Of a stretch of DNA of 64,000 bases, positions 21,086-54,692 are shown piece by piece. This DNA comes from Lingula anatina (Eukaryota; Animalia; Brachiopoda). The notes under the pieces were generated by a model, which was not told the DNA's origin, did no database searches, and worked only from the letters and a program-made list of their open reading frames with translations. The stretch covers positions 32,488,001 to 32,552,000 of the forward strand of contig CM120642.1 in the NCBI GenBank assembly GCA_051362555.1, in the 5' to 3' direction. Position 1 is the stretch's first letter; each line of letters starts with the position of its first letter. The position numbers and the translations under genes were made by a program.

Positions 21086-21332
21086 AGACTGGGCTCCCAT
21101 CCCTATAGATCTAACAGGATCGGTCCATCTCCACTGGTTTTCTCGCTAAATTGCTTTCACCTTAAGTGGCTAAGATGTCTGGCAAGCCTGCTAAAGCTGC
21201 TGAACAAAGGTAACTAATCTCTATCAGCATCATTAGGTATGATAGACGTCTAAGCCGCTTAAGTTAATTGCAGAATCCCCTTGGAGATAGTTCGATCCAA
21301 AGTTAGTTCTACATCTCTGAGAATGGTCTCTA
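21086..21332. mobile_element. Foldback MITE family 1 copy
   Basis: agatctaacaggatcggtccatctcc...cttggagatagttcgatcc. Similar to 10351 and 54423. Confidence 0.75.
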
Positions 21333-24453: not shown

Positions 24454-26791
24454 CTTTGATGCTGTTTTCAAGATGCTGATGGTGAGAGTGATAACAAGAT
24501 TTGGTTCTCCATGCATCTTTCCCATTAAAAATGAAGAACTCATCTATGGCAACTGGGAAAAAGACGTCATAGGGGATGCTGAAGTAAATAAAATGTGTAT
24601 GTTTTTTTTTCTTTCAACAAATATACAAAATATACATGTATGTACATTGTATGTGACATGATTATGCCTCAAAAAGCATGTTTTATATGAAAATAAAATG
24701 GATTAATTGGTTACTTTGTTGATTCATGACAAAGTTTAGATATATATTTTTTCTTTTATTCTAAGAATCTTCTTAACACACTCTTAATGCTTTGATAAAA
24801 TGTTGCTGCAGTCCTTCGCAAGGCTACAGCAATACAGGTCAAGGTCCTTGATTCCTAGTTTTTGCACAAAATTTAATTAAAGATATTTTGCTGTAATTCT
24901 TTCTTTCACTGTATGGCTATTTACCCCTGTCTACTTTTGCTGTTATTCAAACAGTTGTGACATACTTATGTCTGTCCATTTGACAGCATGTACTGTCTTG
25001 TTCTTATTTTCTTACTGACTTTTCTTATTTCCTTTCTGACTTTTCCAGGCCATGGACCATATTCCTCAATCTTCAGTGATAACACTTGACCCCAATGATG
25101 ATAATATCATCCTTGAAATCCCAGAGGACAGAGACCCTGGGGAGGAGAAGAAGTCCACCACATCCAGCAAAAAGCAGAAGGTAGTTTTATATTGCTATTG
25201 TCATAAAGATATTCATCTCCTTAATTAATATGTAGCAGTTAGCTAGTTGGTGTTTTTATACTGTGTTATAACAAGAAAGTCTTGGATTATGTTTCAGAAC
25301 ATAGCTGTATTCTAGAGGACTACTACTGTTGCTTTATCCATAACTGAGGTAGACCATGTTTTTGGTCAGAAAATTTAGACACAAGGGCTTTTTTTAACAT
25401 TTAAGTTTGCAAAATTGTATTTCTGTGTAGGTGAATGTTTTTATGTAATGCAAAAGTAACCTGATGTGTTTATGATTCCTTTATAGAAAATAATCATAAT
25501 TTTCAGGAAGTCCAAGATTCTACTTGGAAAGGCAGGACTTATCAAAGAAACTGAGGAGGAAGATGAAGATGTTTGTATTAAACAAGGAATATATTTTATA
25601 AAAAGAATAGAATGAATTTAGACATATTCAGGTTTTAATTAATCAATTAATTTGTGTATTTATTTATTGTATACTTTATTGTTTTAACATTTATAATATT
25701 GACCAAAATCTTGAATCAGTTAAGTTTACATTAAGATAAAGTTCCTGTCTGGCCAATATTATTATAAGTTTAATAAATTTTGTAGATGTAATGTTCACTT
25801 TAAACTGAGTCCAGTTGAATTATTGTTTACCCCAGGAAAATCAATTTTTGGCCAAAATGAACAGTTGTTATCCCTTCAATTCTAAGCAAAATCTTAATCT
25901 TTTGAATCAAGAAATAAAGTTGTCATACTTTTTAAAGCAACATTTATTGCACATAAAATTTACTGCCATTATAACTGACACTAAGTCATTTGCATTTGAG
26001 AAATTTTAACAGTAAAATTCTTGCAGGTAGTTGCTATACTAGTAATAAAGAAATGCCTAGGTTAAGAATAATACATGCATGTACATGGCATGGTAGTGCT
26101 TTCTGTCCTTCAGTCTCAGAATGACAGAAAGCCTTTGGGACTGGTAATAATCAGGATGAGGTTAATTCTCTTCTGATAGTAACCCAATTTGTTTCACTTT
26201 TAAGTTTCATATAAATGAAATATTAAAATGCTGGTAGTTATTCTTCCGGTCTGACAATGTTAAATATATAACTTGTCGATGATATATAAGTCTGAATGAC
26301 TAATTCTAGATTTCTAAAAAAAAAATGATAATATATGTCTAGTACTATCTAATGTCTATAAATTGATATTTTTTTTTTGTTATATATTACAAGGGTAAAG
26401 TTCACTTACAAGTAATGGATATGAATAAATACACAGGCATCTAAATAGTAAACAGCAGTATGAAGACAATGCAGCATTAATATAAGTAGATATAATAATT
26501 ATTAAATTGCCTTTAGTTTCTTCGGTTTCAAAAAGGCTAAATATATAATTAAGGAAACACTGAAAATATTTCCTATTGATTTGAATATACCAGTAATATG
26601 GTCATTTGATCACCCAACCAATATTTATTATTCAACCAAATAAATGTGTAAATGTACGCATGTCCAGATACAAACTCACATTAAACACTCTCCAACATAT
26701 GGCACTAACAATACCACCAAATATACAAATAAAAACAAAAATACATTTCAACTCTTCAGTTGTGAAAAAAATTTCATATAGGTAATATAAA

Positions 26792-26960
26792 TCAGGTCCG
26801 TAGCCAGTAGATTGATAGGGGAGGGGTCTTTTTCTGAAAAAGTGGCCCTTTTACCATGAAACCATTGTGTGCCTAGGTAAAATATTACCCAGAGGGGACC
26901 TTTTCCCGGCAAAAATAGCTGTTTGTTCTAACCACCTGAAATCCCCTGGCTATGGACCTG
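26792..26960. mobile_element. MITE family 4
   Basis: TIR caggtccgtagccag...ctggctatggacctg. Related copy at about 56819-56975 shares tttctgaaaaagtgg. Confidence 0.7.
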
Positions 26961-28239
26961 TAGATTTATTTAAAATGAAAACCTTTGTTACACCAGCACT
27001 CAATAGTTTAATTATCAGTTTATGAACTGTCAGAATTATCTCACTGATACAGTGACCTCTTGTTAATACATAGTGTTTTCAGTCTATGGTGTTTGTGTTC
27101 CCACTCTGGTTCTCACCAGCAGAAATCCAGTGTAGGCTCAGATCAATATCCTGTTGTTGTTGTTTTTTTTTTTTGCTTCAATCTCACATCCCCATGTAGG
27201 GGCATATAGTGTACACTTTCATGATGAGACCGGTTGCAGAAATGAATAGAGAATATGAACTACCATAACTATAATTATTCATGTCTTTCTGCAATTTCAT
27301 ATCCCCATGCAGTGACACATAGGTGTACACTCTTAATAATGATGGGGTGCATACAGAATTAAAATTAAATATCTAAAATATTATAAAGAAAATAATCTTA
27401 TATTTGCCACCAAATCACATAGTTCCATGTTCTTTTATCTCAGGATATTTACACATACAGAATGCATAATGAATCCTTTAGGGGAGGGGGGGGGGGAGTG
27501 AGTTAGCCATGCACCCACCCAAAGTTTGTAGTTAGCATATGGCTATGCTTGAAGAAAGAAAAGAAGACACTATCTAGTTGTTCTTGGAGAAGTGACCACA
27601 GTATACTGGTAGATATTCTTGGAAAATTGAGAACTACAGACATTTTTTGGAGAAGTTGGGACTATATTAGAATTCTTGGAGAAATTAAGACTGTTGATAA
27701 ATTTCAAAAGAAGTTTGGACTTTAGAGAAACAGAGAATTAAATTCTACAGAGATATTTTTTGAAGAAGTAAGGACTATATAAACATATTTGGGACAAAGA
27801 GAGTCGAGATGTTCAGTTACATATTTCAAGTGCACTGCAATGTAAAAGAGACTAAATGCCAAACTTCAACATACATCTTTTCAATATATTCAACATCTGT
27901 CTTGAGAGTATTTAACCCTCTTGTACAATAACTGCTTAGTAAATGTAAGCAATATGAATTAATCAATTTCCCCAAAACATCTATACTAACAGTTTAAAGT
28001 TCCATGTGTTTTGAAAGTTACATTACAGCTAGAACATGTGTCCATTTTTTTTTTAACATTCAAAGCTTGCAGTACACAGCCAGAAGTGTTATTATGAGTC
28101 GGTATATAAGGGTGTTTGCAGTCTAACAGCTATTCTCTCATTATATTCCATTTATTTTTATATGCAAGTGTTTTTATCTTCACCCATTTATTCCAGCACT
28201 TTTGTTATGTTGTTGTATCAGGTAGCCATATCAGGATGT

Positions 28240-31200
28240 TTAGATCCTAGATCCTCTTTCATCACTTATTTCCCTGATTTTTACAAACATATATTTCATT
28301 GCCTCTTCGGACTGCCCCATGTTAAGAAGTACAGCACAAATTAAAATAAATACTACAGCAACATCAGGATGCTTGGGGCCTAGCAGTTCTTTTTTCAGTT
28401 TGTGGCATCTTTTTAAATATGGAAGTGCTCTTTTGTAGTCACCCATGGCTTGTAGTAAATCACCAATATTGTAGTACAAATGAGCAGTATGAAGGTGTTT
28501 GGGGCCTAGCACATCTTCTATCACTTCTTTGCTTTTTTTATAACAGTCAAGTGCCTCTTTGTACTCACCCATGTCTTTTAGTAAAGTGCCAATATTGTTG
28601 TATGAGGCAGCAGTATCAGGGTGTTTGAGACCTAGGATCTCTTCCCTTACTTCTAGACATTTTCTATGATAGTCGAGTGCCTCTTTGTACTTACCCATGG
28701 CTTTTAGTACATTGCCAATATTGCTGTATGTGGTAGCAGTATCAGGGTGTTTGAGACCTAGGAGCCCTTCTTGCACTTCCAGACATTTTTTATGATAGAC
28801 AAGTGCCTCTTTGTACTTACCTATGTCTTGTAGTACTCCACCAATATTGGTGTATGAGTAAGCAGTATAAGGGTGTTGGGGGCCAAGGACCTGTTCCCTT
28901 ACCTCCAGGCATTTTTTGTAATAGTCGAGTGCCTCTTCGAACTTACCTATGTCTTGTAGTACGTAGCCAATATTGTTGTATGATCTAGCTGTTTCAGGGT
29001 GTTTGGGACCAAGGAACTCTTCATTCACTTTCAGACATTTTTTATGATAGTCAAGTGCCTCTTTGTACTTACCCATAACTTCCAGTACACAGCCAATATT
29101 GTTGTAGGAGTAAGCAGTATCAGGGTGTTTGGGACCTAGGAGCTCTTCTCTTACATCTAATCCTTTTCTATGATAGTCAAGTGCCTCTTTGTACATACCC
29201 ATGTTTCTCAGTACATTACCAATACTGTCGTATGAGGAAGCAGTATCAGGGTGTTTGAGACCTAGGACCTCTTCATTTACCTGCAGGCACTTTTTAAAAT
29301 AGTCAAGTGCCTCGTTGTATTTACCCATGTTTTGTAGGACTTCACCAATGCTTCTGTCTGTTTTAGCTGTGTCAGGGTGTTTGGGACCTAGGAACTCTTC
29401 CTCTACCTGCAGGCATTTTTTAAGATAGTCAAGTGCCTCTTCGTACTCACCCATTTCTTGTAGTATTATACCAATATTGTAGTGTGATTTAGCTGTTTCA
29501 GGATGTTTGAGACCTAGGGACTCTTTTTTTTCTTCCAGGCATTTTCTGTGATATTCAAGTGCCTCTTTGTACCTACCTATGTGACTCAGTACATTACCAA
29601 TATTGTTGTATGAGGTAACAGTATCAGGGTGTTTGACACCAAGGACCTCTTCCTTTACTTCCAGGCATTTTTTATGATACCCAAGTGCTTCTTTGTACTT
29701 ACCCATGTCTTGTAGTACTCCACCAATATTGTTGTATGAGGTAGCAGTTTTACGGTGTTTTAGACCTAGGACCTCTCCCGTTACCTCCAGGCATTTTTTA
29801 TGATAGTCAAGTGCCTCTTTATACTTACCCATGTTTCTCAGTACACTACCAATATTGTTGTATGAGGCAGCAGTATCAGGGTGTTTGAGACCTAGGAACT
29901 CTTCCTTTACCTCCAGGCATTTTTTATAATACCCAAGTGCTTCTTTGTACTTACCCATGGCTTTTAGTACTCCACCAATATTGTTGTGCAATTTTGCTTT
30001 TTCCATTGGTTGACCTTCAAAAAACATGTTCATATCTACCTCAATTGATTGAAAAATCGAAAGAGCTTCTTGATTCAGAAATAGAAAATGGAATGTATTT
30101 GCAATCATTTGTAGGATATTGAGTTTGATTTTCTTCTGTTGTATGCCAGAAGTGCAGAGTTCCATTTTAAGCAAGGTGGCAGTCATGTGTAAATGGGGCA
30201 CCAGTTTTGACATATTTTCAAAAAGTGAAGCTTTAATATTTTGCACAATGTATAGCTGGAGCACACGACATATGTAATAATCACGGTATTTCTTTCGTGT
30301 GTGAGTGATTTCATTGTTGTCAGTTTGTGCAAGAAACTCTGCATACTCCTTCACCAAAGGATGCAGATCATAGGTATTTTGGACTAAACTCAAGAGTGAT
30401 TTAGCACTGAGATTGTCAAGGACAGATTCACATTCATCTTCATCCATCTCCAAAATCTCGGAGACTTCTTCTGAATTGAATGCAACAGGAAATATATGCA
30501 GTCCCCTTAACACCCTTTTCTCTGTGTCAGTCAGTGTTTCATAAGACATCTCTAAGCAGGTAAGCATACCTTGAGATGCTGGAATGTTAGGTAACTGAAG
30601 AGAGGGGAGGACCTTCATGCGGTTCATTTTCTCTAACACTTTTTGTACTGTTTTGAGCTTGATCTGGGTAGCTGCTAATTTTAATGCCAGGGGATTGTGG
30701 CCACATCTCTCTGATATTTCACCTAAAGCTTCTGTCTCACTATCTGTGGGGCTGATTGTATTTCCCCCCCAAAGGACTTCAAGTGAAGATGTTTTATCAA
30801 GGGGAGGGATGTCTATAGTAACTGTGGTTTGTGACAGAAGACTGAAGGATTCACGACTGGTGCATAAAAGAGTGATATGTTTTGATGAATTCATGACATC
30901 CTCCAGTAACTGCAGAAACTCTTGCTGGTGTGAATTCAAAACGCTGTCATTATTATCAAGGATAAGGAGAGTGTCTGTTGCTAAATTAGACATAGTTTGT
31001 GTAAATTTGTTCTGATAATCACAGTAAATATCTTTCAAAAACTGATTTGGGTGATAGTGCTGCACAAGTGATAATTTGACAGAATCAAGATTTACAACTT
31101 TTCTCATATCAATATGCAAGACATCTTTTTTGACATATTTTCTGTGATGTCCAACCTCAACAGCTATGCTTGTTTTACCTATGCCCCCCATGCCAGTCAG

Positions 31201-32691
31201 GAGAATGAGTTTTGTATCATTTTCAACATGCTGCAGTATTTTCTGCACCAGGTCCACTCGTCCCTTCAGCTCTGGAGTTCTACTAGGAAGGTCAGTAGAG
31301 ATGAGCTGACAAGGTGCTTCTGAAATTGAAAAGTAAACATGCAAGAAAAATCTTAACTTTAATGCATAAAAATGATTATATTAGAATTATAATTTCACAT
31401 TATTTAAATACTGGGGTAGAGTTTTGAAAGGTAGATTTGATGTTTTAAAATGAATGTCGGGGGAAATAAATTTTGTAGTTATTTCTAAACTCAATGTATC
31501 CTTCTTTAAAGGTACATACATGTACGAACCGAGCATCGGTGGAGCGTGGATTCCCATTAACACATGTAAACCACTTCTACTAGATTCTTAATTGACTCAA
31601 AAAAATTTGACATGCCAAGGGATAAACTGAATAGATCACTCGATCAGCCATAAAAGACCTTTAGACTGCTCCTTTCTTTAAATTTATGGTTGTAAATTTA
31701 ACCTACTTCCGTAACCTATTTTCCTTGCCCATTGAGATACAGCTTAGAATGCCAGCAGAAAAATCTGTTCAAACATCATTTTCGGGTAAAATTAAACAAT
31801 GCCTTTTGGTAATTCTCTTAGTTATACTACTTGAAACTATATGCTGGCATTTGGTTGGTTTCATGTGACTAAAAATTGACTTTGTATGCATCTTTAAGCT
31901 TATACCTTGTGGAATCAGCAGAGCACAATCCCAAGAGTACTACAAAGAACAGATCCTCTCGATTGCACATTTCTTCAAAGTACACTTGTGACTTTAAACT
32001 AAAAGTTTTCTTTATTTATATGCTGGTGGACAATCGGTATAATAGAGCACAGTCCCTCTTAGCCAAAAAGAGCAGTTTCTCTCACTATTTTTCATAGTAC
32101 ACTCGTTATCTGTTAAATATGTCATACCTGCTGCATGCAATGGATCAGTAAGCAACTTGTCATAGTCATCACTGCTGTAGATTGTGGACAGTGATAACAA
32201 CAAAGCTTTCAATTCTGTAAACTGGGTCTGAAATGCAGCATCTGTTAGACTGGCCCCCCGTGGGAAAATTTGTTGCGATATTTCTTCACTCTGCCAATCT
32301 GTGCCTCCATGGACATGTCAGTTGTCGGTGGATTCTCCCAACTGCCCTTTGGGTTTAGTGTTGTGATATTTCTTAACAAGACTACTGTAAGAGTCACATC
32401 TAAGTCCTTCAATGTCACAGTTGTGGAGGGATTCCCAGAAGGGTATAGAAGCTTCATTTGGCTTGCATTCAAAACTTTCATTTTTTTCAACTGTAGCAAA
32501 GTTTGATTTGCCTTTTGGTCAGTTAGAATATCAAACAACTTGCCACCATTTGAGGGATCAAACAACCCTGGATAAGTTGTTTGTAACTGTGTACTGAGGA
32601 CATCTTGAAGCACATCTTGTGATCGATGTATCAGTAGTCCCATACGCATTGTGTTTTCTATCTCATTACGTGGAGTGGCAGCAGTCGCCAT
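28240..32691 (-). CDS. NLR-like gene copy A: HEPN(DZIP3-type) - STAND NTPase - 13 TPR; 1-bp frameshift in the HEPN exon as assembled
   Basis: Exon 32691-32128 (564 nt, vs 565 in copy B), donor G|GTATGA, acceptor TTTCAG, exon 31319-28240. Walker A GMGGIGKT, Walker B LLILDN, CTSR, GHNPLAL, LHPLV. 13 full 42-aa repeats plus a degenerate cap. About 1214 aa if the frameshift at 32254-32259 is repaired. Confidence 0.88.
31506..31897. mobile_element. TTAA-flanked MITE (Kolobok/piggyBac-like) in the copy A intron
   Basis: ttaa-aggtacataca...tgtatgcatct-ttaa. The paralogous site in copy B (about 41890) is empty with a single TTAA. Confidence 0.85.
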
Positions 32692-33786
32692 TTTGTTTTA
32701 GGTCTGAAAAGAATAAATATCTCAGTGTGAAATAAGGTAAAGGTGTTGCTGGCTTTCATAAACCATCACAAGATAGTAGGAAATTTTGTTTTAATATTTA
32801 ATTTAAAGGGGGAGCCCTTCGAACATTTTTTCCTGGCCTTACAAAAAGCGATGTACATGTACTAGTTCTTCGGGAAAGACACAGCATATTGGTCCTGAAA
32901 TCTTTTTTTATTTCTTAAAAGCAAATTTGGCATGATTTGTCATTGGTAAAGGAATAATTAAGTTAATTTGAAATGATGAAACACGGGTCATTGTCTTAAA
33001 TTTAGTTAACTAAAAATGTTGTTTTTGGTTTTAAGAATATAGTTAATACATAAAGAAGTATTCAGAAGTAAAACAAGGAAGTATAGGATGAATTAATTCA
33101 GAAGTGAAACTAGGAAGTACAGGATGTACTAAGTTGGATCAGTATATAAATGTGATTATGCTGTATAGAAATGATTTGAGTATACACTAGCTAATATCTG
33201 GTGATAAAATTGTAAACAAATGGCTGTCTTAAACTCACCTGAGAATGGATAAAGAAATTCCTTGCTGGGAGCGAATGAGAACTACGCCTTTGTCACCTGA
33301 TGTAAGGTTGTCATGTGACATACGGGTATTCAAGGTCCAAAAGAATAACTTTTTTATGTAAGTGAAAGATTTAGCCACCAAAGTATGCAAAATCTGACTT
33401 TGAATCGGTAGCAAAGTCAATTTCTAATCACTGCCTTTCCTTCCTTGGAAAATGTTCAATTCCGTATCGGCATTAAACCACTTGACACAGAAATGCCGTC
33501 TTGTTGTTATCAGTAATGGCGCAGTTTTGTGGAGATTGGTTATTTACGTATCACCGGCCAAGTAGGTTACCTTAGGTCATGGTGTTCTTATCATTAATTT
33601 GACTGCAATTTGTTACAGTACTAAGTAGGTTAGCATTGTTGATTTGCTGCCTATAATATGGTTACTTCTTTTGGAGATTTTTTGCTACATTAAAGGGGAA
33701 AAAGAAATGCTGCGCTTCTGTGATTATATTATTGTTGTTGTTTTGGGTTTTGTTCTATAGTGCTATGAAAGACAAACACTCTGTTG

Positions 33787-34130
33787 TTAAAGGGATAATA
33801 ACTCTTCATATGAGATCTATATTTCACAATAAAAACATTGTGAATAACTCATAGAAATATAATATATTCTGTTTTACCTCAAAAACGGCAGTTATAGCTA
33901 TTATTCTGATATCTGAGCTTGTCTTTAGATGACGTAACCTCCATTGATGGCTATACTCTGTTAAAATCTCTTAAGAGAATTTAACAAAAAACAAACTTTT
34001 TAGAAAAAAACCAGGGACTAACTTTGAATGTAAAAATGGATTCATTAACCATTGGTAAGTATGAGAAAATTGTTGTTCACTGCAGGAAAATTCATTTTTT
34101 GGCCGAAACGAAGAGTTATTATCACTTTAA
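33787..34130. mobile_element. TTAA-flanked MITE (Kolobok-like)
   Basis: ttaaagggataataactcttc ... gaagagttattatcactttaa (1 mismatch). Lies within a segment absent from copy B. Confidence 0.8.
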
Positions 34131-37100
34131 ACAAGGACAATTTTTTACTTGAAATAATTTATCATTTCTCTGAACATGGTAGGCCTGCGCATAGTTAAAT
34201 CACTAGAAAAAGATAACATTTCACAATTCTCTTTCAGTCTTCCACACAGCCCCTTTTTTTTAAACAATTTGCACTTGCACTATGGATATACAATTATCCT
34301 AAATTCATCTTTTTCAGATATAACAGAAGAAAAATACTGGAGTTCATCCTTAAAAATCACTTGTCTTTTTAGCATTCCACTCCAGCATGTGAACTCCAGC
34401 AGCCATTTTTCCCATCACACATGGGCAGCATGAAACTGTGGAGTTTTCATCGTCCTCCCCTCAAAAAGTATTCCCATGGACCCATGTCTCAGCAAAGACC
34501 ACAGGTCATACTGCCTCTACTGAAAACTATAAGAAGGAAGGCAAAGGTGAGTTCTGGTTGATGGTTTTAGAAGTAAAACCACACAGATATGTACTCATGT
34601 TATTGTTGCTTGGTTTTGATCCTTTTTTTAAGTCAAAAAGTGTGTGATATTAATCTACCAGTACTGGTAGAATGGTAAAAACCAACCTTGACTCTACCAC
34701 AAAATAACAGGCCAGTGTCCAAATTGTCTTTTTTTTCAAAGTTTGTCAAGTGTGTCTTCTGTCAATTTTTTTTTTTTTTTATCAGTAATGGTAACAATCC
34801 TTGTTCTGACATGTTACTAGTCTTTCTCAACCTGTCATTTAAGACGTCAAATAAATTAATATATTTTTTTAGTAAAACTTTCCCAATGCTGGCTTTATTT
34901 CTTTTATAATTTTGATGTTGACATAAAATAAATTCAGTTAAGTTTACATTAAGATAAAGTTCCTGTCTGGCTAATATTATTATGGGTTAAATAAACTTTG
35001 TAGATATAATGTTCACTTTTTAAAAATTTAAAAATTGAGCCCAGTTCCTATGATGATGCATTTTGGCTGCTGGTTAATTTGATACTGGTCAGACTGTTGT
35101 ATATTATAACAAAGTGCATATTAAGCTATATCTTTTCACGCTTGTATATTTATGTATAAATGCAGTAGTATCTCTGCATATTCCAATTACCTACTTCTGT
35201 TTGGCACTGCTGGAACAGGAGCAGGGCACATTTCTTGTTACTGTATATACAGCTGTTTGACTTAGAACTTACAGGAATTACTCAATGTTATAAGATCTTG
35301 GGAGTGATTTGTGTATTCATGATATTTTTTCTGATGTTTTCAGAAGAAAATTTTGATCTTGATGCTGAATTTACGTGGCAGTCTGTGGCTCTAGACAGGG
35401 ATTAAAAAGATTATAAATTGCACTGTATTTCAGCAGTTACAATTCCAACTATAAATATAAGAAAAATAGTATATGCACATCAGCTTAGTTTGAAGCAAAA
35501 TCTTTATCTTTTGAATCAAGAAAAAAGTTGGTATACTTTTCAAAGCAACATTTATTACATAAATTTCACCTCCATTAAAAGTGACACTTAACCATTTGCA
35601 TTTGAGAAAGTGTTACATTAGAAATCTTAATTGTAGGTAAGTGGTATGCATGTTGTACATAAGTAATGCTCAGATTAAGAATAAGATGTTCATGGCATGG
35701 TAAAACTGTCAGTCCTTCAGTCTCAGACTGATAGTAGGCCTTCAGGACTGGTAAGAATGAGGTTCAAGTAAATTCTCTTGACTGAGAATAAATATTCTTT
35801 TAATTTGTTATAAACCATATTTATTTCGCTTTTAAGTTTAATATAATTGAAATGTTAAAAACCGATGCTTATTCATTTGGTCTGACAGTGTCCATAATTT
35901 TATAAGTTCATAACTAATGTGATTGTCAATACTAAATTTCTAAGAATAACATAATGACTATTGGTAGTAAATATAGTAATTTCCAACTTCTAAATATGAA
36001 ATGATTACAGTACATATGTTGAGTAAATAAAATATATGTATATGAATTTATATACATTCATTTTTTTAAAAATGAAAGAATACCCATCATAATTTTTGAA
36101 AACAAAGCAATGGCAATAACTATCCCCAAATAGATAAACTTAATATTTGTAATCTGCATTTGATTTCCATCCACAGTATATGGAGCATTCCAATTTAATG
36201 GACATACTAGTAAGCTTTGTGTACTGATGCACACCAGTGTCGTTTCACTTTATTTATTATTACTTAATAAACAGGTTATGTTCTCTTACATGTCGCAGAT
36301 ATGAATAAATACACAGATATCTCAATAATAAACAACAGTATGAAAACTATGCAACATTAATTGCATAGTAGATAATAATTATTAATACCATTAGTTGCTT
36401 CAGTTTCAGCAAGGCTAAATATATAATTAAGGAAACACTGAAAAATATTTCCTAATGATTTGAATATACCATTAATATAGACATTTGATCACCCAACTGA
36501 TATTTATTATTTAACCAAATAAATGTGTAAATATATGCATGTGCAGATACAAACTCACATTTAACACTCTCCAACATGAAGTTCTAACAATAAAGTTTAC
36601 CATCAAATATACAAACAAAAATACATTTCAACTCTTCAGTTATGAAAGAAAATCCTGGCACAAAGTGTGGTTCTTTTGACACCCTCCCCTCTCCCCCTGA
36701 GCTCCCTCGGCTTCATTAAAACATAAAAACCTTTGTTAAACCACCACTCAATAGTTAAATTATCAGTTAATGAACTACCAGAATTATCCCACTGATAAAG
36801 TGACCTCTTATTAATACATAGTGTTTTCAGTCTATGGTGTTTGTGTTTCCACTCTGGTTCTCAACAGTAGAAGTCCAGTGTGGGCTCAGATCAATATCCT
36901 GTTGTTTTTATTCTGCAGTCTCACATGTAGGGGCATATAGTGTACACTTTTAAGATGGGACTGGTTGCAGAAGTAAACAGTGAATTATAACTATCATAAC
37001 TATGATTATTCAAGTTTTCTGCTATTTTATATCCACACACAGTGACACTTAGGTGTAAACTCTTACTAATTATACAGAAATAAAATCATTTTAATATTAT

Positions 37101-37633
37101 AAAGACAAAAATCTTATATTAAGCACCACATTCACATAGTTATATGTTCCATATTTACACACACAAAATGATTAATAAGTCAGCAAAAATGTTCATTAGT
37201 TTACTGGTTGGATCATACATAAAAATTATCGGACACAAGCTGAAATATTTTCTTCACCGTTAGTTTAACCAGTGAGTGTAACATCTACTCACATCAGTCT
37301 GATGAAGGCCTTTGACCAGGTTGGCAGTAAGCTAAAGGTACGGAAAATATTTCGGCCTGTGTCTGATCATTTTTAAGTATGATTAATAAGTCCTTTGGGG
37401 GGGGGGGGGATATGAGTTAGCCATGCACCCACTCAATTATGTAGTTATTATGGCTGTGCTCAAACAAAGAATAAAATACACTAACTAGTTGTTCTCCACA
37501 GTATACATATCCTTGAGATTTTCGGGAGGAATTCTCGTAGAAGTTAAGACTACAGATAAATTTCAAAAGAGGTTAAGAATATATAGAAACATAGAGAATT
37601 AAGGACTACAGAGATATTTTCTGAAGAAGTAAG

Positions 37634-37635
<2 letters not shown>

Positions 37636-37700
<65 letters not shown>
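37636..37700. repeat. (TA)n microsatellite
   Basis: Seen directly. Short at the paralogous position near 27776. Confidence 0.95.
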
Positions 37701-37701
<1 letters not shown>

Positions 37702-38273
37702 GGGAGAAGTTATATCTATGGATATATTCTTGTAGAAGATAAATATGGATTAATAGATGAAGACTGCCAAAAGGCAGAACAAATTTTGGCATAAGTATAT
37801 AAGCTTAGCACCTAGCTATGCTTTATTTCATGGGCACAATTGGGGTGAAGAAAGTTAAGATGTGCAGTTACATATTTGAAGTGTACTGCATGTAAAGAGA
37901 CTAAATGCCGGCATTTTCAACATATTCAACATACATCTGTCTTGAAAGTTCAACCCCCTTGTAGAATAATAAATTTTTCCCATTGTGTTGAGTAACACTT
38001 TAAATTACAGTTTCATGTGTTTTGAAGAGTTACATTACAGAACGTGTCCATTTTTTAAGCATTCAAAGCTTGCAATACACATCCAACATTATTATTATGA
38101 GTCAGTAAAAAAGGGTGTTTGCAGTCTTACACCTATTCCCTAATTTTCTTCCATTTATTTGTATATGCAAGCTTTTTTTTATTCACCCATTTATTCCAGT
38201 ACTTCCCTGGTATTGTTGTATCAGGTAGCCCTTTAAGAATGTTTAGATGCTAGACTCTCTTTCCTCACTCATT

Positions 38274-41200
38274 TCACTGATGTTTTTTAACATATTCTAC
38301 TGCCTCTTTGAACTGACCCATTTTTTCAAGTAAAGTAACAATTAATTTACATACCATATCAGTATTAGGGTGTTTGGGACCTAGGATCTCTTTTCTCAGT
38401 TTGTGGCATCTTTTTAAATATGGTAGTGCTCTTTTGTAGTCACCCATGATTTGTAATAAGTAACCAATATTGCCATACAATTGGGCAGTTTTAGTGTGTT
38501 TGGGGCCTAGCACCTCTTCCATCACTTCTTTGCTTTTTTTATAATAGTCAAGTGCCTCTTTGAACTTCCCCATGTCTTTTAGTGTCATACCAATATTGTT
38601 GTATGAGGTAGCAGTATCAGGGTGTTTGGGACCTAGCAGCTCCTTTTTCAATTTGAGGCATCTTTTTAAATATGGAAGTGCTCTTTTGTAGTCACCCATG
38701 GCTTTAAGTACATTACCAATATTGCCATATACTTGGGCAGTAGTAGGGTGTTTGGGGCCTAGCACATCTTCCATCACTTCTTTGCTTTTTTTGAAATAGT
38801 CAAGTGCCTCTTTGTACTCACCCATGTCACTCAATACATTACCAACATTGTTGTACGAAACAGCAGTATCAGGGTGTTTGGCACCTTGTAGCTCTTCTCT
38901 CACTTCTAGGCATATTTTGAAATTGTCAAGTGACTCTTTGTACTTTCCCATGGCTTGAAGTGAATAACCAATATTGTTATATACAGGAATAGTGTTTAGG
39001 TGTTTGGGGCCTAGTTCAAGTTCCATCACTTCTTTGCTTTTTTTAAAATAGTCAAGTGATTCTTTGTACTTACCCATGCCTTGCAATACATTACCAACAT
39101 TGTTGTATGTGGTAGCAGTATCGGGGTGTTTGGGACCTAGCAGCTCTTCTTTCACTTCCAGGCATTTTTTGAAATTGTCAAGTGACTCTTGGTACTTACC
39201 CATGGCATTAAGCATATAGCCAATGTTATTGTATGACACGGCAGTATGAGGGTGTTTCGTACCAAGAAGCTCTTCTCTTATTTCCAGACATTTTTTATGA
39301 TAGTCAAGGGCCTCTTTGAACTTACCCATGGTTTTCAGTGTACAAGCAATATTGTCGTATGAGGTAGCAGTATCAGGGTGTTTGGAACCAAGAAGCTCTT
39401 CTCTTACTTCCAGACATGTTTTATGATAGTCAAGGGCCTCTTTGTACTCACCCATGTCTGTCAGCATACAAGCAATATTGTTGTATGAGGTAGCAGTATC
39501 AGGGTGTTTGGAACCATCAAGTTCTTCTCTTACTTTCAGACATTTTTTTTGGTAGTCAAGGGCCTCTTTGTACTTACCCATGGTTTGCAATGCATCACCA
39601 ATACTGTTGTATGAGGAAGCAGTATCAGGGTGTTTGGGACCTAGAAGCTCTTCCCTTACTTCCAGACATTTTTTTTGATAGTCAAGGGCCTCTTTGTACT
39701 TACCCATGGTTTGCAATGCATCACCAATACTGTTGTATGAGGAAGCAGTATCAGGGTGTTTGGGACCAAGAAGCTCTTCCCTTACTTTCAGACATTTTTT
39801 TTGATAGTCAAGTGCCTCTTCGTATTTACCCATGGCTTTTAATGCACAACCAATATGGCCGTATGTGGTAGCAGTTTCAGGGTGTTGGGGACCAAGAAGC
39901 GCTTCTCTTACTTCCAGACATTTTTTATGGTAGTCGAGTGCCTCTTTGTACTTCCCCATGCTTTGTTGTACTCTACCAATATTGTTGTATGAGGTAGCTG
40001 TGTCAGAGTGATTTATACCTAAGAGCTCTTCCCTTATTTCCAGACATTTTTTATAATAATCATGTGCCTCTTTGTACTTTCCCTTGTCTAAAAGTAAAGC
40101 ACCAATATTGTTGTATGAGTTAGCAGTATCAGGGTGTTTGGGACCTAGGAGCTCTTCCCTTACTTTCAGAGATTTTTTATGATAGTCAAGGGCCTCTTTA
40201 TACTTTCCCATGGTTTGCAGTACAACACCTATATTGTTGTATGAGGTAGCAGTATAAGGGTGTTTGGGACCTAGAAGCTCTTCCCTCACTTCCAGGCATT
40301 TTTTGTAATATTCAATTGCCTCTTTGTACCTACCCATGGCATGCAGTACACAGCCAATATTGTTTTGCAATTCTGCTTTTTCAGTTGGTTGACCTTCAAA
40401 TTTTGTGTGCATTTCTACCTCGACTGACTGAAAAATCGAAAGAGCTTCTTCATTCAGAAATAGAAAATGGAACGTATTTGCAATCTCTTGTAGGATATTG
40501 ATTTTGATTTTTTTCTGTTGTATGTTAGAAGTGCAGAGTTCCATTTTAAGCAATGTGGCAGTCATGTGTAAATGGGGCACCAGTTTTGACATATTTTCAA
40601 AAAGTGAAGCTTCAACTGTATCCACAATGTATAGCTGGAGCATAAGCCTTATGTAATAATCACAGTATTTCTTTCGTGTGTGAGAGATTTCATTGCTGTC
40701 AGTTTGTGCAAGAAACTCTGCATACTCCTTCACCAAAGGATGCAGATCATAGGTATTTTGGACCAAACTCAAGAGTGATTTAGCACTAAGATTGTCAAGG
40801 ACAGATTCACATTCATCCTCATCCATCTCCAAAATCTCTGAGACTTCTTTTGAATGGAATGCAACAGGAAATATATGCAGTCCCCTAAACACCTTTTTCT
40901 CTGTGTCATTCAGTGTTTCGTAAGACATCTCTAAGCAGGTAAGCATACCTTGTGATGCAGGAATGTTAGGTAACTGAAGAGAGGGGAGGACCTTTATGCG
41001 TTTCATTTTCTCAAACACTTTTTGTACTGTTTTGAGCTTGATCTGGGTAGCTGCTAATTTTAGTGCAAGGGGATTGTGGCCACATTTCTCTGATATTTCA
41101 CCTAAAGCTTCTGTCTCAGTATCTGTGGGGCTGATCGTATTTTCCCCCCAAAGGACTTCACTTGAAGATGTTTTACCAAGAGGAGGGATGTCTATAGTAA

Positions 41201-42692
41201 CTGTGGTTTGTGACGGAAGACTGAAGGATTCACGACTGGTGCATAAAAGAGTGATATGTTTTGATGAATTCATGACTTCCTCTAGTAACTGCAGAAACTC
41301 TTGCTGGTGTGAATTCAAAACACTGTCATTATTATCAAGGATAAGGAGAGTGTCTGTTGCTAAATTAGACATAGTTTGTGTAAATTTGTTCTGATAATCA
41401 CTGTAAATATCTTTCAAAAACTGATTTGGGTGATACTGCTGCACAAGTGATAATTTAACAGAATCAAGATTTACAACTTTTCTCATATCAATATGCAAGA
41501 CATCTTTTCTGACATATTTTCTTTGATGTCCAACCTCAACAGCTATGCTTGTTTTACCTATGCCCCCCATGCCAGTCAGGAGAATGAGTTTTGTGTCATT
41601 TTCAACATGCTGCAGTATTTTCTGCACCAGGTCCACTCGTCCCTTCAGCTCTGGAGTTCTACTTGGAAGGTTAGTAGAGATGAGCTCACAAGGTGCTTCT
41701 GAAATTAAAAATAAACATGCAAGAAAGATCTTAACCTTCATGCAAAAAAAAAAAAAAAGATTATATTGAAATTTTAATTTTACATAATTTAAGTATTGGG
41801 GTAGAGGTCTGAAAGGTAGATTTCATATTTTAAAACGGACGTCTGGGGAAATGAATTTTGTACTTATTTCTCAACTTAAATATCCTTCTTTAAGTTCATA
41901 CCTTGGGGAACAAATCAGCAGAGCACAATCCCAAGTGTACTGTGAAGAATAGTTCCTCTCATTGTGCACATTTCTTCAAAGTACACTGATGACTTTAAAC
42001 TAAAAGTTGTCTTTATTTATATGCTGTGGACAGTCAGTATAATAGAGCACAGTCCCTCTTAGCCAAAAAGAGCAGTTTCTCTCACTATTCTTCATAGTAT
42101 ACTCGTTATCTGTTAAACATTTCATACCTGCTGCATGCAATGGATCAGTAAGCAACTTGTCATAGTCATCACTGCTGTAGATTGTGGACAATGATAACAA
42201 CAAAGCTTTCAATTCTGTAAACTGGGTCTGAAATGCAGCATCTGTGAGACTGGCGCCCCCATGGGAAAATTTGTTACGGTATTTCTTCACTCTGCCAATC
42301 TGGGCTTCCATGGACGTGTCACTTGTTGGTGGATTCTCCCAACTGCCCTTTGGATTTAGTGTTGTGATATTTCTTAACAAGACTACTGTAAGAGTCACAT
42401 CTAAGTCCTTCAGTGTAACAGTTGTGGAGGGATTCCCAGAAGGGTATAGCAGCTTCATTTGACTTGCATTCAAAACTTTCATTTTTTTCAACTGTAACAA
42501 AGTTTGATTTGCCTTTTGGTCAGTTAAAATATCAAACAACTTGCCACCATTTGATGGATCAAACAACCCTGGATAAGTTGTTAGTAACTGTGTACTGAGG
42601 ACATCTTGAAGCACATCTTGTGACCGATGTATCATTAGCCCCATACGCATTGTGTTTTCTATCTCATTCCGTGGAATGGCAGCAGTCGCCAT
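38274..42692 (-). CDS. NLR-like gene copy B (intact, 1329 aa): HEPN(DZIP3-type) - NB-ARC-like STAND NTPase - 16 TPR
   Basis: Exon 42692-42128 (565 nt; DLDVTLTVVLLRNI..GSWENPP..D.S..AQIGRVKKYRNKFSH) splices in phase 1 (G|AA = Glu) to exon 41698-38274 (3425 nt), giving 3990 nt open. Same NTPase motifs as copy A. 16 full 42-aa repeats (YNNIG.VL..MGKYKEALDY.KKCLEVREELLGPKHPDTA) plus cap. Probable 5' UTR exon donor at 43258. Confidence 0.92.
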
Positions 42693-45411
42693 TTTGTCTT
42701 AGTTCTGGAAAAATATAATGTCTCAGTGTGAAACAAGGAGGCACTGGTGAAGGTGTTGCTGGCTTTTGTAAACCACCACAAGTAAGTGGGAAATTTTGCT
42801 TGAACACTTAATTAAAAGAATGAGCCCTTTGTACATTTACCTGTCTTTAGAAAAGTCATACTAGTTCCTTGGGAAAGACATGGCATATTTTATTCAGGTG
42901 GTCCTGAAATCCTTTTCTTTTTAAAGAAATTAAAATTTCTTAAAAGCAAATTTGGTACGAATTGTCATTGGTAAAGGCATAATTAAGTTAATTTAAAACG
43001 ATGAAACATGAGTCATTGTCTTTCATTACTACAAAATGCTGAGAAAATTTTGGTTTTAAGAATATTATGAATAGATAAAGAAGTATTCAGAAGTGAAACA
43101 AGGAAGTACAGGATGAATCCAGAATTGAAACTTGCAATTATAGGATGTACCAGGTTGGATCAGTATATAAATGTGATTACTGTATAGAAATGATCTGAGT
43201 GCACACTAGCTAATATCTGGTTATAAAATTTTTAATAAATTGCTGTCTTAAACTCACCTTGAAATGGATAAAGAAAAATATTGTTGGGGCGAATGAGAAC
43301 TACGCCTCTGTCACCTGATGTAAGGTTGTCATGTGACATATGGGTATTCACGGTTAAAAAGAATTACTTTTTATCTAAATAAAAGATTAGCCACCAAAGA
43401 ATGCAAAATCTGACTTTGAATTGGTAGATAAAGTCAACTTCTAATTAAACTTTCCTTCCTTGGAAAATGTTCAATATTGTATCGTCATCAATTTAAACTA
43501 TTTGACATAGAAATGTCACCTTGTTGTTATCAGTAATGACGCAGTTTTGTGGAGATTGGTTATTTATCACAGGCCAAGGAGGATACGTTAGGTCATGCTG
43601 TTGTTATCATTAATTTGACTGCAATTTATGTTACAGTACTAACTAGGTCAGCAGTGCTGATTTGTTATCTATGGGTACTTGTTTTGGAAATTTTTTGCTA
43701 CACTTAAGGGGGAAAAAGAATCCTGGGGATCAACTTAAAAAATCACTTGTCTTTTTAGCATTCCACTCCGGCTTGTGAACTCCGGCAGCCATTTTTCCCA
43801 ACACACATGTGCAGCATGAAACTGTGTAATTTTCATCGTCCTCCCCTCAAGAAATATTCCCATGGACCTTTGTCTCAGCACAAACCACAGGCCGTACTGC
43901 CTCTACTGAAAACTATAAGAAGGAAGGCAAAGGTGAGTTTTGGTTGATGGTTTTAGAAGTTAAATCACACAGATACGTACTCATCCTATTGTTGCTCTGT
44001 TTTGATTTTTTTTAATTCAAAATGTGTGATATAAGTCTACCAGCACTGTTAGAATTGTAAGTACAATTTCATTAAGCTGATACATAAGTTACAAAAAGGT
44101 ACAAAATAAACCTTCCATCTTTGTGTCTGTGGATGTCTATGTCAGTTTGCATTGTTTGTATTAGACATAAGTTAAACCTGCTAACAAAGCTTAAGTAAAG
44201 GTAAAAATGATTTAAGTAGGTTTTTAAAGAGTGTCCAGTTAAATTAAGTAATGATAATCTTTGACTTCCAATTTATAAATGTTACTTTCAGATGAGAGAA
44301 CATGAGCGACTGGCCTTTGAAGGAGGCGAGATGTTTCTCCTGAGAACCCCGCAAGATCTCACAGGGATGGATGGAGAGCTGATTTTGGCCGAGTACTCTG
44401 AGGAATTCCCACCTAGCCTCATGCAAGTTGATATGGCAACCAAGATAAGGAATTACTACATGTACAAAAGGGTATCTTTCTTTTGTAATGTTTGTTAGTG
44501 TTTTCCCAACTGTTAAGATCCTTTTCACTAAAACATCACATTTAGGTGATGTTAGTTTCATCTTGGAATATACTTTGAAGACGAGTGGTTTCTAAAACAT
44601 AAATAAATAAACTGAAAATATAGCACTTCAAGTTAGGTTTTTAATAAAATATACTGGAATCCCGAAACATCACCCCCATCTCTATGTGAAACTCTTGGAC
44701 ATATGTAACTAGCCTAACTGTCACTCCTTTACTGATATGACTCGGGTCCTAGGAAAAATTGAAAAATAAAATTAAATAATAGATTAATGAATAAAATGGA
44801 GTAAACGGAAAAATCAGCAAAATGCAAAAGGTCAGGGGGGAGGCAACCAAGGACCTATTAATATTGAAAAGTATATTAATCGGGTCGTCCATCGGTCCTA
44901 AAATGTAATTACGCTTTTACCCTCTATTTCTAAATTCTCCACAAGTTCCCATCTGCTGTTAAGGATGATCCGTATAGGCGACTCTTGTACATATTACGTT
45001 TACATATTATTTTACATATCAGGCTATAATTTAAGTAACCTGTCTCTCAAAAAGGAGTGCCCACTTAAGTGTACTAGTACCTCTCGAGGTGGAGAGGCCC
45101 TCGGGCGAGGACGGGATAGATCCATCAATCCCGCGTCTTATGATGCGTCTTTTTTATTGAGTTATATAAGTCTGTGGTAATTCTGTAGTTGGACAACGTC
45201 TCAGAGAGCCTATGAATATGAACAAGTTTAATGCTGGATACAATTGGATGCAATTGTTATAATTGTTATATTAAAGGTAATTAGTGATAAGTTACAACGA
45301 TAAGGGACTGTCCGACTTCCATATCTCTTTAAGATCATAGATAACACGTCTGAGGGGCATATGTCATGTAAGTCACACTGGTTTGTATTTCAATGGTGAC
45401 GCAGAGAAAGC

Positions 45412-48074
45412 ATGGCACGACTTAAACAACTCCATCGTATATTTGTTGTCGGATCAATATTTGCAGTCACGTTATATCTTGTACACGTAACAGTCCAAAA
45501 CAATATACATGTATTTTACCGTGATTCTCTCCAACGTGGGACACAGAAAGGTGAGTTTGTATTGAAGTTTACTGCTTTGTGGTGATGACCGATCGAGAAG
45601 ATGTGGAAGATTTCTAAATCATAATGAAAACATTTCAGCTTTTCTAAAAGGCACATATATTTTTAGGCGTATGCGTAACGAGCGTTACTGAGCAAACAGC
45701 ATCATTTATGACCTGTTCATTTTTTGTTTTTAGTGAAAAGGGTGCATTGATATAAATGTGACGTATTTTGAGTCAGAAAATTGCTTTCATAGTGAGATAA
45801 TGCATTACAATGGTTTTAGAAAGAACAAAATCAATATAACGTAACTCTCATTTTGTTTATTTTAGACGAATACTCAGATCTGAAAAGAGATTCACAGATT
45901 GAAAAGAAACAGGTAATATTTCTATGAAATCTGCGCTTACAGTGTAGGTGACATTCCAAAATTTGCCTTAGCGTAATGAGGCTGTTTTATTTCTTGCTCT
46001 TCTCTGCACGTAAAAGATTTCCTAAAAAGATTTAGTATCGTTCCTGTGGTGTTTGGTACTTAAATCGGAGTCCCAAGGCATGGCGTTTGAAATACAGTAA
46101 ATGGACGTTTTGGATGTACTGTTTAATGGATAATGGTCATTTTTCCATGTATCGCCAACTTGTTTTATTAGATCTTAGTTTATATATATAATAAGGGGGG
46201 TGGAGAGGAGTTACGACTCAGTCCTCCTTTATCAGTCTACATCAGTCATAAGCAGAAGATGAAGGGGTAATTAGGCAGTGGGAATCAAACCCTTCTCACC
46301 GTCTCTATTACTTTTTTTGATTTTGAAAGGATACCTGCCTCCCAACACACACACACGCACACACGCACATACACGCACACACACACACACACACGAAACC
46401 TGTTTCCTGCGCTCTGTGCTCTTGAGTAGACCTACACTCTAGGTGAAGTGACGTGTCAATGATGGGGATAATAATAATAATAATAATGATTAAACAATAA
46501 AAACTCAGTAATGGGAATGAATTTCCTTTGCATGATTCGGGGTGTATAGTGGCTTACAGCTATTTGGATGGCTGTAAGCCAGTGATATTATCAAGCGGCG
46601 CCTACAGAAAAGACGCGGGAGTTTGTATGACAGCCTACGGTTAACAGGCCTAATGCATACTGACACACACCTTGAAAACGGGTAGTGTGGTCTGATGTAC
46701 CGGTGAATTCAGGATCATTCGTTGCCGAGTCTGGTAGTTGGGTAGGCCTGGTCAAGGTGTCAGTTTCAACATCTGTTAAATAAAAATTAAAACGTATTTG
46801 AACCTAACCCCCCTTAACAAAATTATTTTTTCCAGACAAGCGTGGACCAGAGTCATTCTGTTTTTTCTCGATGGGATGCCATGGAACTCAGGGATGTGTC
46901 TGTTTTTGGGAAACACAGGCAGAAGAAAGGTCTAGAATGCTGCACTATCTATCTATCTATCTATCTATCTAACCAGATTTCCTAAACTGTACATATCTTA
47001 TTTTTTAATGAACATTTTTCAATATATAACTGCTTTCAGATGCAATCAAACTGTTTTCTCCTTGCACCAAGTTTAACAATTTGAGAAAAAAAGACAAACT
47101 TTTGAAGAACAGAAAAAATGTTTAATTCTCTATGTTATCTCTGTATACATACATTTTACGGTACATACATTTTACGGTACTGTCCTGTGTTATCATTCAA
47201 CTTTAAACTATCTAATATTAACAGTTGGTTAATATTTCTCAATTGAAATGTTTCAGGTTTTCTTACCATTGGTATTCCGTCTGTCAAACGAGCAAAGGGG
47301 ACCGTGTATCTGTTGCAGACGATTTCTTACATAATAAACATGACGTCACCAAGTGAGAGGGTGAAAATTGTTTTATTGGTGTACCTGGCAAATTTTGATA
47401 CACAATACAATGAAAATGTCTTGAAAAGTATCAGCGCAAAATTTGATGATTTCATCAAGAGTGGATTTATTCTAGTGATGCAAGTTCCAGAAAAAAATTA
47501 CCCTCCGTTAGAAAATTTGAAGAGGAATTATAATGATTCTCCGGAGGAAGTAAAATGGCGATCGAAACAGAATGTTGATTATGCTTTTATGTTTCTGTAC
47601 GGAAGAAATATATCAGAGTACTATATTCAGATTGAAGACGATGTGATTCCAGCCCGTGGATTCACCAAAGACGTACGTGCTTTTATCATAGAAAATAGCA
47701 AAAAGCCATGGATATGTTTAGAATTTTCCATTCTTGGATTTATTGGGAAACTGTTCAAATCCAAAGACTTGGAAAAATTTGCAAGGTACTTGATTTTATT
47801 TTACGACGAGCAACCTTGTGATTGGCTTATCAATCATTTCCTAACTTCGATGACTCAGAAAAAGCGCATCTTCCAGCATGCGGCATCCAGGGGGACTGGT
47901 CTTCCTCGGAAGAAAAGTCCAGGAAAGGACCTAATATGTCGCGGGACATTTACTTCAAAGATAAACAAGGAAAAACCACTCAAGGGGCGCCAAAAGGAAA
48001 GTCGTGACTTGCAATTACACTTCTGTAGCTTAATACAAGGAGCAAAAACGTTCTTCCAAAATATTTTTAAGTAA
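45412..48074 (+). CDS. MGAT4C: MGAT4/GT54-like N-acetylglucosaminyltransferase, copy 1, frameshifted near the C-terminus (possible pseudogene)
   Basis: Exons 45412-45550 (signal anchor), 45866-45912, 46836-46929, 47257-48074. Motifs FLTIGIPSVKR, WRSKQNVDYAF, YYIQIEDDV, LEFS.LGFIGKLF, QPCDWL. Net 10-nt loss at about 47870 relative to copy 2. The homologous tail (QGDWSSSEEKSRKGP) continues in another frame to 48007. Confidence 0.85.
46345..46394. repeat. (CA)n microsatellite
   Basis: Seen directly. Confidence 0.9.
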
Positions 48075-54422: not shown

Positions 54423-54692
54423 GAGACTGAATAACTTTGGGTTTCCACACCTAGATCGATCTAACAGGATCGATCCATTTCAAAGGAGTTTCTCGCTAAA
54501 TTGCTTTCAGCTTAAGCGTCTTAGATGTCTTGCATGCCTACTAAAGCTGTTAAACGATAGTTAATTACCCCCTAACAACCTCAGTATGCGTGACAGACAT
54601 CTAAGCCGCTTAAGTTGATTGCAATTTAGCGAGAAACCCCTTGGAGATAGATCGATCCACAGTTAGTACGATAGGGTCTGGGAATGGTCCCT
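54423..54692. mobile_element. Foldback MITE family 1 copy
   Basis: ctagatcgatctaacaggatcg...cttggagatagatcgatcc. Confidence 0.8.

Follow-up and report, generated by a model that had tools for sequence, protein, structure and literature searches.

The question raised by this 64,000-nucleotide stretch of the Lingula anatina genome (contig CM120642.1 of assembly GCA_051362555.1, positions 32,488,001 to 32,552,000; hereafter the window) is whether the long repeat arrays of two neighbouring genes form a recognition surface diversified by selection. Both genes, here called A and B, lie on the minus strand and combine a HEPN_DZIP3 domain, an NB-ARC-type NTPase of the signal transduction ATPase with numerous domains (STAND) class and an array of tetratricopeptide repeats (TPRs). 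A first-pass annotation of this DNA had proposed a modular, recombining surface under diversifying selection, set on an otherwise conserved gene. Our analysis indicates that A and B are tandem paralogs of a brachiopod HEPN / NB-ARC / TPR family and probably act as intracellular immune receptors resembling NOD-like receptors (NLRs), with TPR groove positions under moderate positive selection. The array positions and unit counts given earlier proved exact, each unit being precisely 126 bp long without insertions or deletions:

28360..29997, minus strand: array of gene A, 13 units of 42 aa
38361..40376, minus strand: array of gene B, 16 units of 42 aa (34-aa TPR plus 8-aa linker), TPR_10 x16

The position-9 residues previously read from successive units were also recovered letter for letter (GSGNIENCYGNTD in A and CVARCDDCCYNYNNMY in B). 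The arrays are not a product of chance, with Tandem Repeats Finder scores of 1520 and 1188, and all 29 units match a unit hidden Markov model at E<=1.5e-26, the profile having been built from the same units.

Selection on the repeat units

Goldman-Yang site models, in our own implementation (one-ratio likelihood -1935.9, compared with -1936.1 in IQ-TREE), were applied to a codon alignment of 29 units by 42 codons. The ratio of nonsynonymous to synonymous rates (dN/dS, omega) exceeded 1 at groove positions 2, 9 and 13, as anticipated for the per-codon analysis. Model M2a was favoured over M1a (p=6e-4 with F3x4 and 2e-3 with F1x4 frequencies) and M8 over M8a (p=3e-4 and 6e-3 with the same two frequency models), the top site class having an omega of 1.5-2.2, or 2.5 on the FastTree tree. 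Position 2 reached omega 3-3.5 (p=1e-4), positions 9, 13 and 34 reached 2-2.3 (p 0.003-0.016), and position 12 was borderline. Not all positions earlier named as variable behaved in this way: neither 3 nor 5 is distinguishable from omega 1, and position 6, mostly Asn (24/29), is under purifying selection (omega 0.2-0.3). Further variable positions are 10, 24, 31, 34, 37 and 41. About half of the unit positions lie significantly below 1, and the scaffold is under purifying selection; the synonymous rate shows no trend along the unit and is not raised in helix A. The signal is present in array A alone (p=3e-4), in array B alone (p=4e-3) and after removal of the C-terminal unit classes (p=2e-4). 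Among 13 close unit pairs, which are not independent of each other, 40 of 114 amino-acid differences fall at 6 of the 42 positions, where 16 were expected.

The unit numbering used here coincides with standard TPR numbering, as established by alignment to the consensus TPR, and faces were assigned from this numbering and from helical periodicity, not from model coordinates. Helix A variability peaks at a 100-degree period and therefore lies on one helix face. TPR positions 2, 5, 9, 12, 13, 33 and 34 have been described as the most variable and as lying on the concave face, and positions 2, 5, 6, 9, 12 and 13 as contacting the ligand, position 6 frequently being a conserved Asn (PMC1261162). 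For the set 2, 5, 9, 12 and 13, chosen from the literature, omega was 1.9 (confidence interval 1.5-2.4) on the codon tree and 3.0 (2.4-3.7) on a tree that excluded the tested codons, and packing, helix B and linker positions had values of 0.2-0.5. Nine other Lingula arrays of at least 7 units have the same leaders by mean rank (2, 9, 12 and 13).

Relaxed constraint by itself, in which the groove tolerates change, omega above 1 is inflated by unit recombination and a wrong tree, and genes that may well be immune-like experience no diversifying selection, is an unlikely explanation. The same positions do vary in unrelated arrays and in TPRs generally (PMC1261162), and the pairwise homoplasy index (PHI) indicates a mosaic history: for all informative sites no permutation out of 2000 reached the observed value, and codon blocks gave p<=0.003, although the index was not calibrated against rate clustering and third positions by themselves gave a weak signal (p 0.15, 0.07 and 0.025). 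Because units recombine, null sets with omega<=1 were simulated not only without recombination (21 sets) but also with three breakpoints (21) and with eight (20). Recombination lifted the null statistics in these simulations (maxima 4.5, 14.0 and 14.1, respectively), but the real gene-wide statistic of 20.0 was above all 62 sets. The frameshift of gene A, described below, means that recent change in A may be neutral; array B by itself is nevertheless significant. In addition, the pre-chosen groove set exceeds 1 on both trees, including the one built without its codons, and the variable positions 5, 24 and 41 stay at omega ~1, whereas 2, 9 and 13 exceed it.

Several observations nonetheless weigh against positive selection on an immune receptor groove. 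Two of the 41 recombining null sets match the best single-site statistic and five of the 41 have at least four sites above threshold; single-site calls are therefore less safe than the overall test, and the gene-wide result is robust, single-site calls beyond positions 2 and 9 being less so. The omega values are modest, the alignment spans 42 codons, resolution of the unit tree is poor and the models were implemented by us. Position 34, which lies outside helix A, is also selected. Twelve unrelated 42-aa arrays, being those of 120 proteins that passed the filter, rank positions 9, 12, 2 and 13 highest (Spearman 0.71); the positional pattern is therefore generic, and the new element here is an omega above 1. 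Present-day polymorphism shows no concentration in the groove: between B and the database protein P0001, another copy of B, 0/39 groove residues and 8/263 other array residues differ, the difference not being significant (p=0.6). Finally, a ligand, an RNase activity and an immune role are suggested by analogy with STAND and HEPN biology.

Gene organization and predicted structure

Self-BLAST of the window revealed a tandem duplication of ~9-10 kb per copy, each with a HEPN exon and one large exon. The non-coding flanks of the copies are 85-92% identical and the coding non-repeat parts ~95% by pairwise comparison. Apart from the arrays, the features are as follows:

25674..44060, no strand assigned: tandem duplication with both genes, copies at ~25.7-34.7 kb and 34.9-44.1 kb (self-BLAST, pairwise identities)
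42128..42692, minus strand: gene B HEPN_DZIP3 coding exon, from ATG to phase-1 donor (Pfam PF18738, E 2e-32)
42278-42261, minus strand: gene B Rx4H motif, R-N-K-F-S-H
38274..41698, minus strand: gene B large exon with NB-ARC-type STAND NTPase, helical arm, TPR array, capping unit and stop (open frame)
41573-41547, minus strand: gene B Walker A, GMGGIGKTS
38111..38342, minus strand: behind the B array, diverged capping unit, coding to 38274, and decayed non-coding unit (38229-38111) past the stop
32128..32691, minus strand: gene A HEPN exon (DNA alignment, three-frame translation)
32277-32260, minus strand: gene A Rx4H motif
28240..31319, minus strand: gene A large exon with NB-ARC, arm, TPR array and capping unit, frame open (TPR_10 x13)
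31194-31168, minus strand: gene A Walker A
28105..28340, minus strand: behind the A array, diverged capping unit, coding to 28240, and decayed non-coding unit (28226-28105) past the stop

The gene B HEPN exon is identical to the N-terminus of P0001, and its GT donor is visible in the sequence. The capping and decayed units were recognized by nhmmer at E 7e-10 and 3e-9 in B and at 9e-12 and 5e-8 in A; the decayed unit past each stop shows that both arrays have lost length.

The NB-ARC family (PF00931) scored 35 bits in B and 31 bits in A against a cut-off of 23.5, and the repeats also match TPR_10/12. Neither NACHT nor leucine-rich repeats (LRRs) occur among the best 25 Pfam families of either copy; with an NTPase that scores as NB-ARC and a TPR sensor, the genes fall outside the canonical animal NLR definition (NACHT plus LRR). 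The NLR-like STAND layout of effector domain, P-loop NTPase and C-terminal repeats is present, with a frameshift interrupting it in A, and its parts are joined in the database model P0001. The motif RNKFSH is present in both copies, as is Walker A (GMGGIGKT), and the HEPN_DZIP3 domain is, on motif grounds, a putative RNase, a role of Rx4-6H termed putative in the literature (PMC9646362).

An AlphaFold model of the B large exon (mean predicted local distance difference test score 82, with only ~40-80 in the NTPase part) contains a P-loop domain, a helical arm and regular helix-turn-helix units. A fold search with this exon returned the STAND-TPR structure 6mfv_A (E 7e-12) in a match list dominated by unrelated TPR solenoids. 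By sequence, the best solved-structure matches are kinesin light chain TPRs, and the Podospora 42-residue repeats 4y6w and 4y6c were also found. These kinesin matches and the database name of P0001, 'nephrocystin-3-like', are what speaks for a non-immune scaffold, or an allorecognition or developmental signalling protein, of nephrocystin-3 or kinesin-light-chain type; such a function is extremely improbable, as both resemblances are confined to the 42-aa TPR, and the HEPN RNase motif, lineage-specific expansion, a pseudogenised copy and omega above 1 suit conflict genes better than housekeeping scaffolds.

Divergence between the two copies

The HEPN part had been described as nearly invariant between the paralogs, and this is the case, 5 of 145 comparable codons being different (dN 0.015, dS 0.19, omega 0.08). 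The accompanying statement that the NTPase differs little is correct over the first 330 codons of the large exon, with 21 changes and an omega of 0.39, but not over the last ~110 codons before the array, where 20 residues differ between A and B (omega ~1.1). Within the helical arm (30327-29998 in A, 40706-40377 in B) the changes cluster at large-exon residues 346-363. This diverging arm may be part of the sensor or of its autoinhibition surface.

The arrays were said not to align one-to-one, which is correct for the middle units but not for the terminal ones, which have counterparts: mutual nearest relatives are A1 and B1, A12 and B15 (also B13 and B11), and A13, B14 and B16. Two units are on average 77% identical if both come from A, 74% if both come from B and 75% if one comes from each array, so that most unit diversity predates the A/B split. 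Of the 406 unit pairs, only one has an amino-acid identity of at least 85%. On our own unit alignment, rather than by T-REKS, Psim was 0.755 in A and 0.763 in B, both at or above the threshold of 0.70, and identity over at least 100 aa, for which the criterion is more than 85% (PMC4986451), was at best a borderline 0.85 in B and 0.75, below it, in A. With unit DNA only ~75% alike, internal conservation is weaker than in the high-identity repeats to which the first-pass annotation had compared the arrays.

State and expression of gene A

Relative to B, gene A has a 1-bp deletion near 32254, right after the HEPN RxxxxH motif, that leads to a premature TAA at 32247-32245, a defect absent from the first-pass annotation; its second exon, of 3 kb, is still open despite this frameshift. 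In sequencing run X1 the sole contig listed across the site has the open form, together with other changes like those of paralog P0002; contigs drop variants, and run X5 had no contig listed across the site. The deletion makes A a null copy of recent origin unless it is an error of the assembly, and the reads do not separate a private null allele from such an error; A is probably a null or recently inactivated copy.

The public runs listed as containing the sequence included no RNA run. About 6% of two RNA runs were mapped to the non-repeat part of A, with 97% likeness required, and the sparse depth is evidence neither for nor against expression: two HEPN bins had a depth of 1-1.5 in one of the runs and the NB-ARC exon had no coverage, other reads falling on a repeat in the intron. 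This very high-copy repeat (31482-31937) lies inside the second intron of gene A, has a contig depth above 100,000 in two DNA runs and attracts RNA reads from both strands; the part of the intron that bears it does not align with the B intron.

Turnover of units and comparison of samples

Local duplication of units is evident from the pairs B6/B7 (94% identity), B8/B9 (90%) and A1/A3 (90%) and from two-unit blocks repeated at the end of B. Identical in-register runs extend to at most 89 nt inside B and to at most 48 nt when A is compared with B, and the best A-B unit identity is 87%; no identical units are shared between the genes, A and B being the only ones compared as DNA. The modular, recombining surface proposed earlier is thus retained as far as unit duplication and some exchange are concerned (the 89-nt run and PHI), but rapid shuffling is not.

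The same distinction bears on whether this is a fungal-type hypervariable locus, with fast shuffling and with unit number or order differing within populations or somatically, as at the Podospora het loci. Psim of both arrays passes the threshold of at least 0.70 (PMC13449251), unit number differs between the paralogs, and in P0001 8/302 array residues differ from B against 1/628 elsewhere (p=7e-4), an excess that could reflect repeat mis-assembly. The units present in P0001 are collinear with B, and contigs from four samples in three studies match the B array with unchanged unit order, differing from it by 0-2% across stretches of up to 588 bp: X1 (495 bp, 0 differences), X2 (588 bp, 2), X5 (387 and 259 bp, 0 and 1) and X6 (389 bp, 7). 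No repeat-number polymorphism was seen in these samples, whose contigs cover up to 4.7 units and in no case the whole array; the runs were picked as best matches, one being possibly the source of the window, and alleles <90% alike to the B array lie outside the reach of the comparison, a selection that leaves room for hypervariable alleles. Identical runs are confined to 89 nt between units and 48 nt between genes, and the scarcity of unit pairs at 85% identity points the same way. We therefore regard a hypervariable locus as very unlikely. The expectation that the arrays might be monomorphic in populations, which would speak against the earlier proposal, was partly realized: the shared B unit order argues in part against rapid shuffling, within the partial contigs available.

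The common order of the contigs and the collinearity of P0001 therefore indicate slow diversification on an evolutionary scale rather than hypervariable alleles, alongside which rarer length alleles may exist. Rapid allelic or somatic shuffling is not supported, and neither the A and B arrays nor the sample contigs contain any sign of a programmed or somatic process. Five full-unit variants were traced on long contigs, three of them silent and two changing linker positions 37 and 38; the change at position 37 is also found in P0001. In the B capping unit (38360-38274), X6 has four variants, two of which change residues and none of which occurs in the other three runs. Joints with a net size that is a multiple of 126 were considered as rearranged B alleles and rejected: their sides measure 20-37 bases with foreign letters between, and they were read as units of other paralogs.

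Donor-like sites inside the units

Unit codons 14-17 (M-G-K-Y) coincide with the splice-donor consensus, as GTAAGT in 12/29 units and GTGAGT in 4/29, and 16/29 units have an in-phase AG six bases upstream of the donor-like site. The database model P0001 skips whole units at four such junction pairs, and P0002 has one such junction. From these sequence features one could imagine exon-internal donor-to-acceptor splicing that would delete whole TPR units in frame and couple combinatorial sensors to the RNase; if true, an animal would derive a receptor repertoire from a positively selected repeat through splicing within one exon. We consider this highly improbable, given that the junctions of P0001 and P0002 may be gene-prediction artefacts over a repetitive region and that Gly15 codons are no more conserved than those of Gly8 or Gly36, with no sign of selection for the donor. 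A search for shorter proteins like the B array, aimed at transcript-derived junction forms, gave no close relative among the best 120 of 191 matches (best identity 49%).

The Lingula family and related proteins

Family members were compared as database proteins. The best matches are 12 proteins of the same family from Lingula anatina, 41-100% identical over the NTPase region and each with an array of its own; the remaining 55 of 67 matches are weak and mostly unnamed or bacterial. Of the 11 Lingula family members with a HEPN part, 10 retain the Rx4H motif. Searching with the HEPN and NTPase regions together yielded three more HEPN-STAND-TPR proteins (P0189, P0190 and P0192) at ~25% identity, one of them named from the coral Stylophora. 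A related HEPN_DZIP3 is fused to ROC-COR in Lingula P0188 and to LRRs in P0191; it is therefore an effector common to NB-ARC-TPR and ROCO-type proteins. Repeats of the same TPR class accompany ADP-ribosyltransferase matches (PF01129/PF03496) in P0070, P0114, P0127 and P0141, proteins from a bdelloid rotifer and unnamed sources that represent another effector-plus-TPR system in animals.

Proposed mode of action and significance

If A and B belong to immune receptors with a selected groove, as we think probable, STAND and HEPN biology suggests the following course. A non-self ligand, probably a pathogen protein, would bind the concave TPR groove, upon which the NB-ARC switch would be released, with nucleotide exchange and oligomerisation. 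Oligomerisation would pair HEPN domains into a composite RxxxxH RNase site, and the resulting cleavage of RNA would stop the infection or shut down or kill the cell. Specificity would shift over evolutionary time through point substitutions in the groove and occasional duplication, loss or conversion of units, all within a birth-and-death gene family.

To a specialist the principle itself would be unsurprising. The result matters because it adds an invertebrate animal to the fungi and brown algae in which receptors have been documented to evolve in this way, here with a selected TPR groove wired to a putative RNase, and the family offers a test case for HEPN_DZIP3 domains, much expanded in bivalves and corals, as ligand-gated RNases.

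Neighbouring features of the window

Two plus-strand open reading frames (ORFs) at 47247-48074 and 52880-53662 contain the MGAT4 conserved region (Pfam E 2e-72 and 5e-76) and, being 84% identical in DNA, form a second tandem duplicate pair adjoining the HEPN genes. No Pfam family was matched by ten further long ORFs in the window. A family of ~250-bp palindromic elements, 70-84% alike and resembling miniature inverted-repeat transposons, occurs at 10351-10605, 21082-21331, 54430-54692 and 3933-4049.

Comparison with known systems

In the open-access literature we found no report that treats these Lingula proteins or analyses selection codon by codon in NB-ARC-TPR arrays of animals, and the family did not appear in the available text of PMC8195603 or bioRxiv 10.64898/2026.09.21.753143. 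A close precedent is provided by fungal NLRs, Podospora Pa_2_10340 and its relatives (Dyrka et al., 2014, PMC4986451; Ament-Velasquez and Saupe, 2026, PMC13449251), which share the effector / NB-ARC / TPR layout, repeats that are alike within a gene (Psim 0.76 here), kinesin-light-chain-like TPRs and a few selected concave positions. For fungal NB-ARC-TPR NLRs, conserved repeats that are polymorphic in length have been described, together with selection at three TPR positions of the concave side (PMC4986451), as have repeat exchange between such NLR genes and the existence of such internally conserved NLR repeats in animals (PMC13449251). Unlike them, the Lingula genes are animal, carry a HEPN RNase-type effector and have a lower unit identity, with neither repeat-number polymorphism in the samples seen nor identical units between A and B.

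The NB-ARC-TPR genes of the brown alga Ectocarpus (Zambounis et al., PMC3341825) resemble the present pair in having 42-aa (126-nt) units behind NB-ARC, gene birth and death, positive selection tested per unit and paralog arrays that cannot be aligned. In Ectocarpus, however, each unit is one exon and units are shuffled as exons, whereas in Lingula the whole array and NB-ARC share one frame with no introns between units. The Lingula genes probably operate in the manner of the fungal and algal receptors.

HEPN_DZIP3-NACHT proteins of bivalves and cnidarians, a type of fusion that has expanded in the pearl oyster and in cnidarians (PMC9646362; PMC8260672), likewise have an N-terminal HEPN_DZIP3 with Rx4H on a STAND NTPase, tandem expansion, a proposed immune role and, in pearl-oyster NACHT proteins, TPR C-termini; the available text of these two papers contained no codon-level selection analysis of such repeats. 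The Lingula proteins differ in that their NTPase scores as NB-ARC and their sensor is a long regular 42-aa array.

At the level of the single repeat, the generic TPR groove (Magliery and Regan, 2005, PMC1261162) displays the same variable positions 2, 5, 9, 12 and 13 and a modestly conserved Asn at 6. That work covers variation among unrelated TPR proteins, whereas the young within-gene units of Lingula allow omega itself to be measured, and found to exceed 1.

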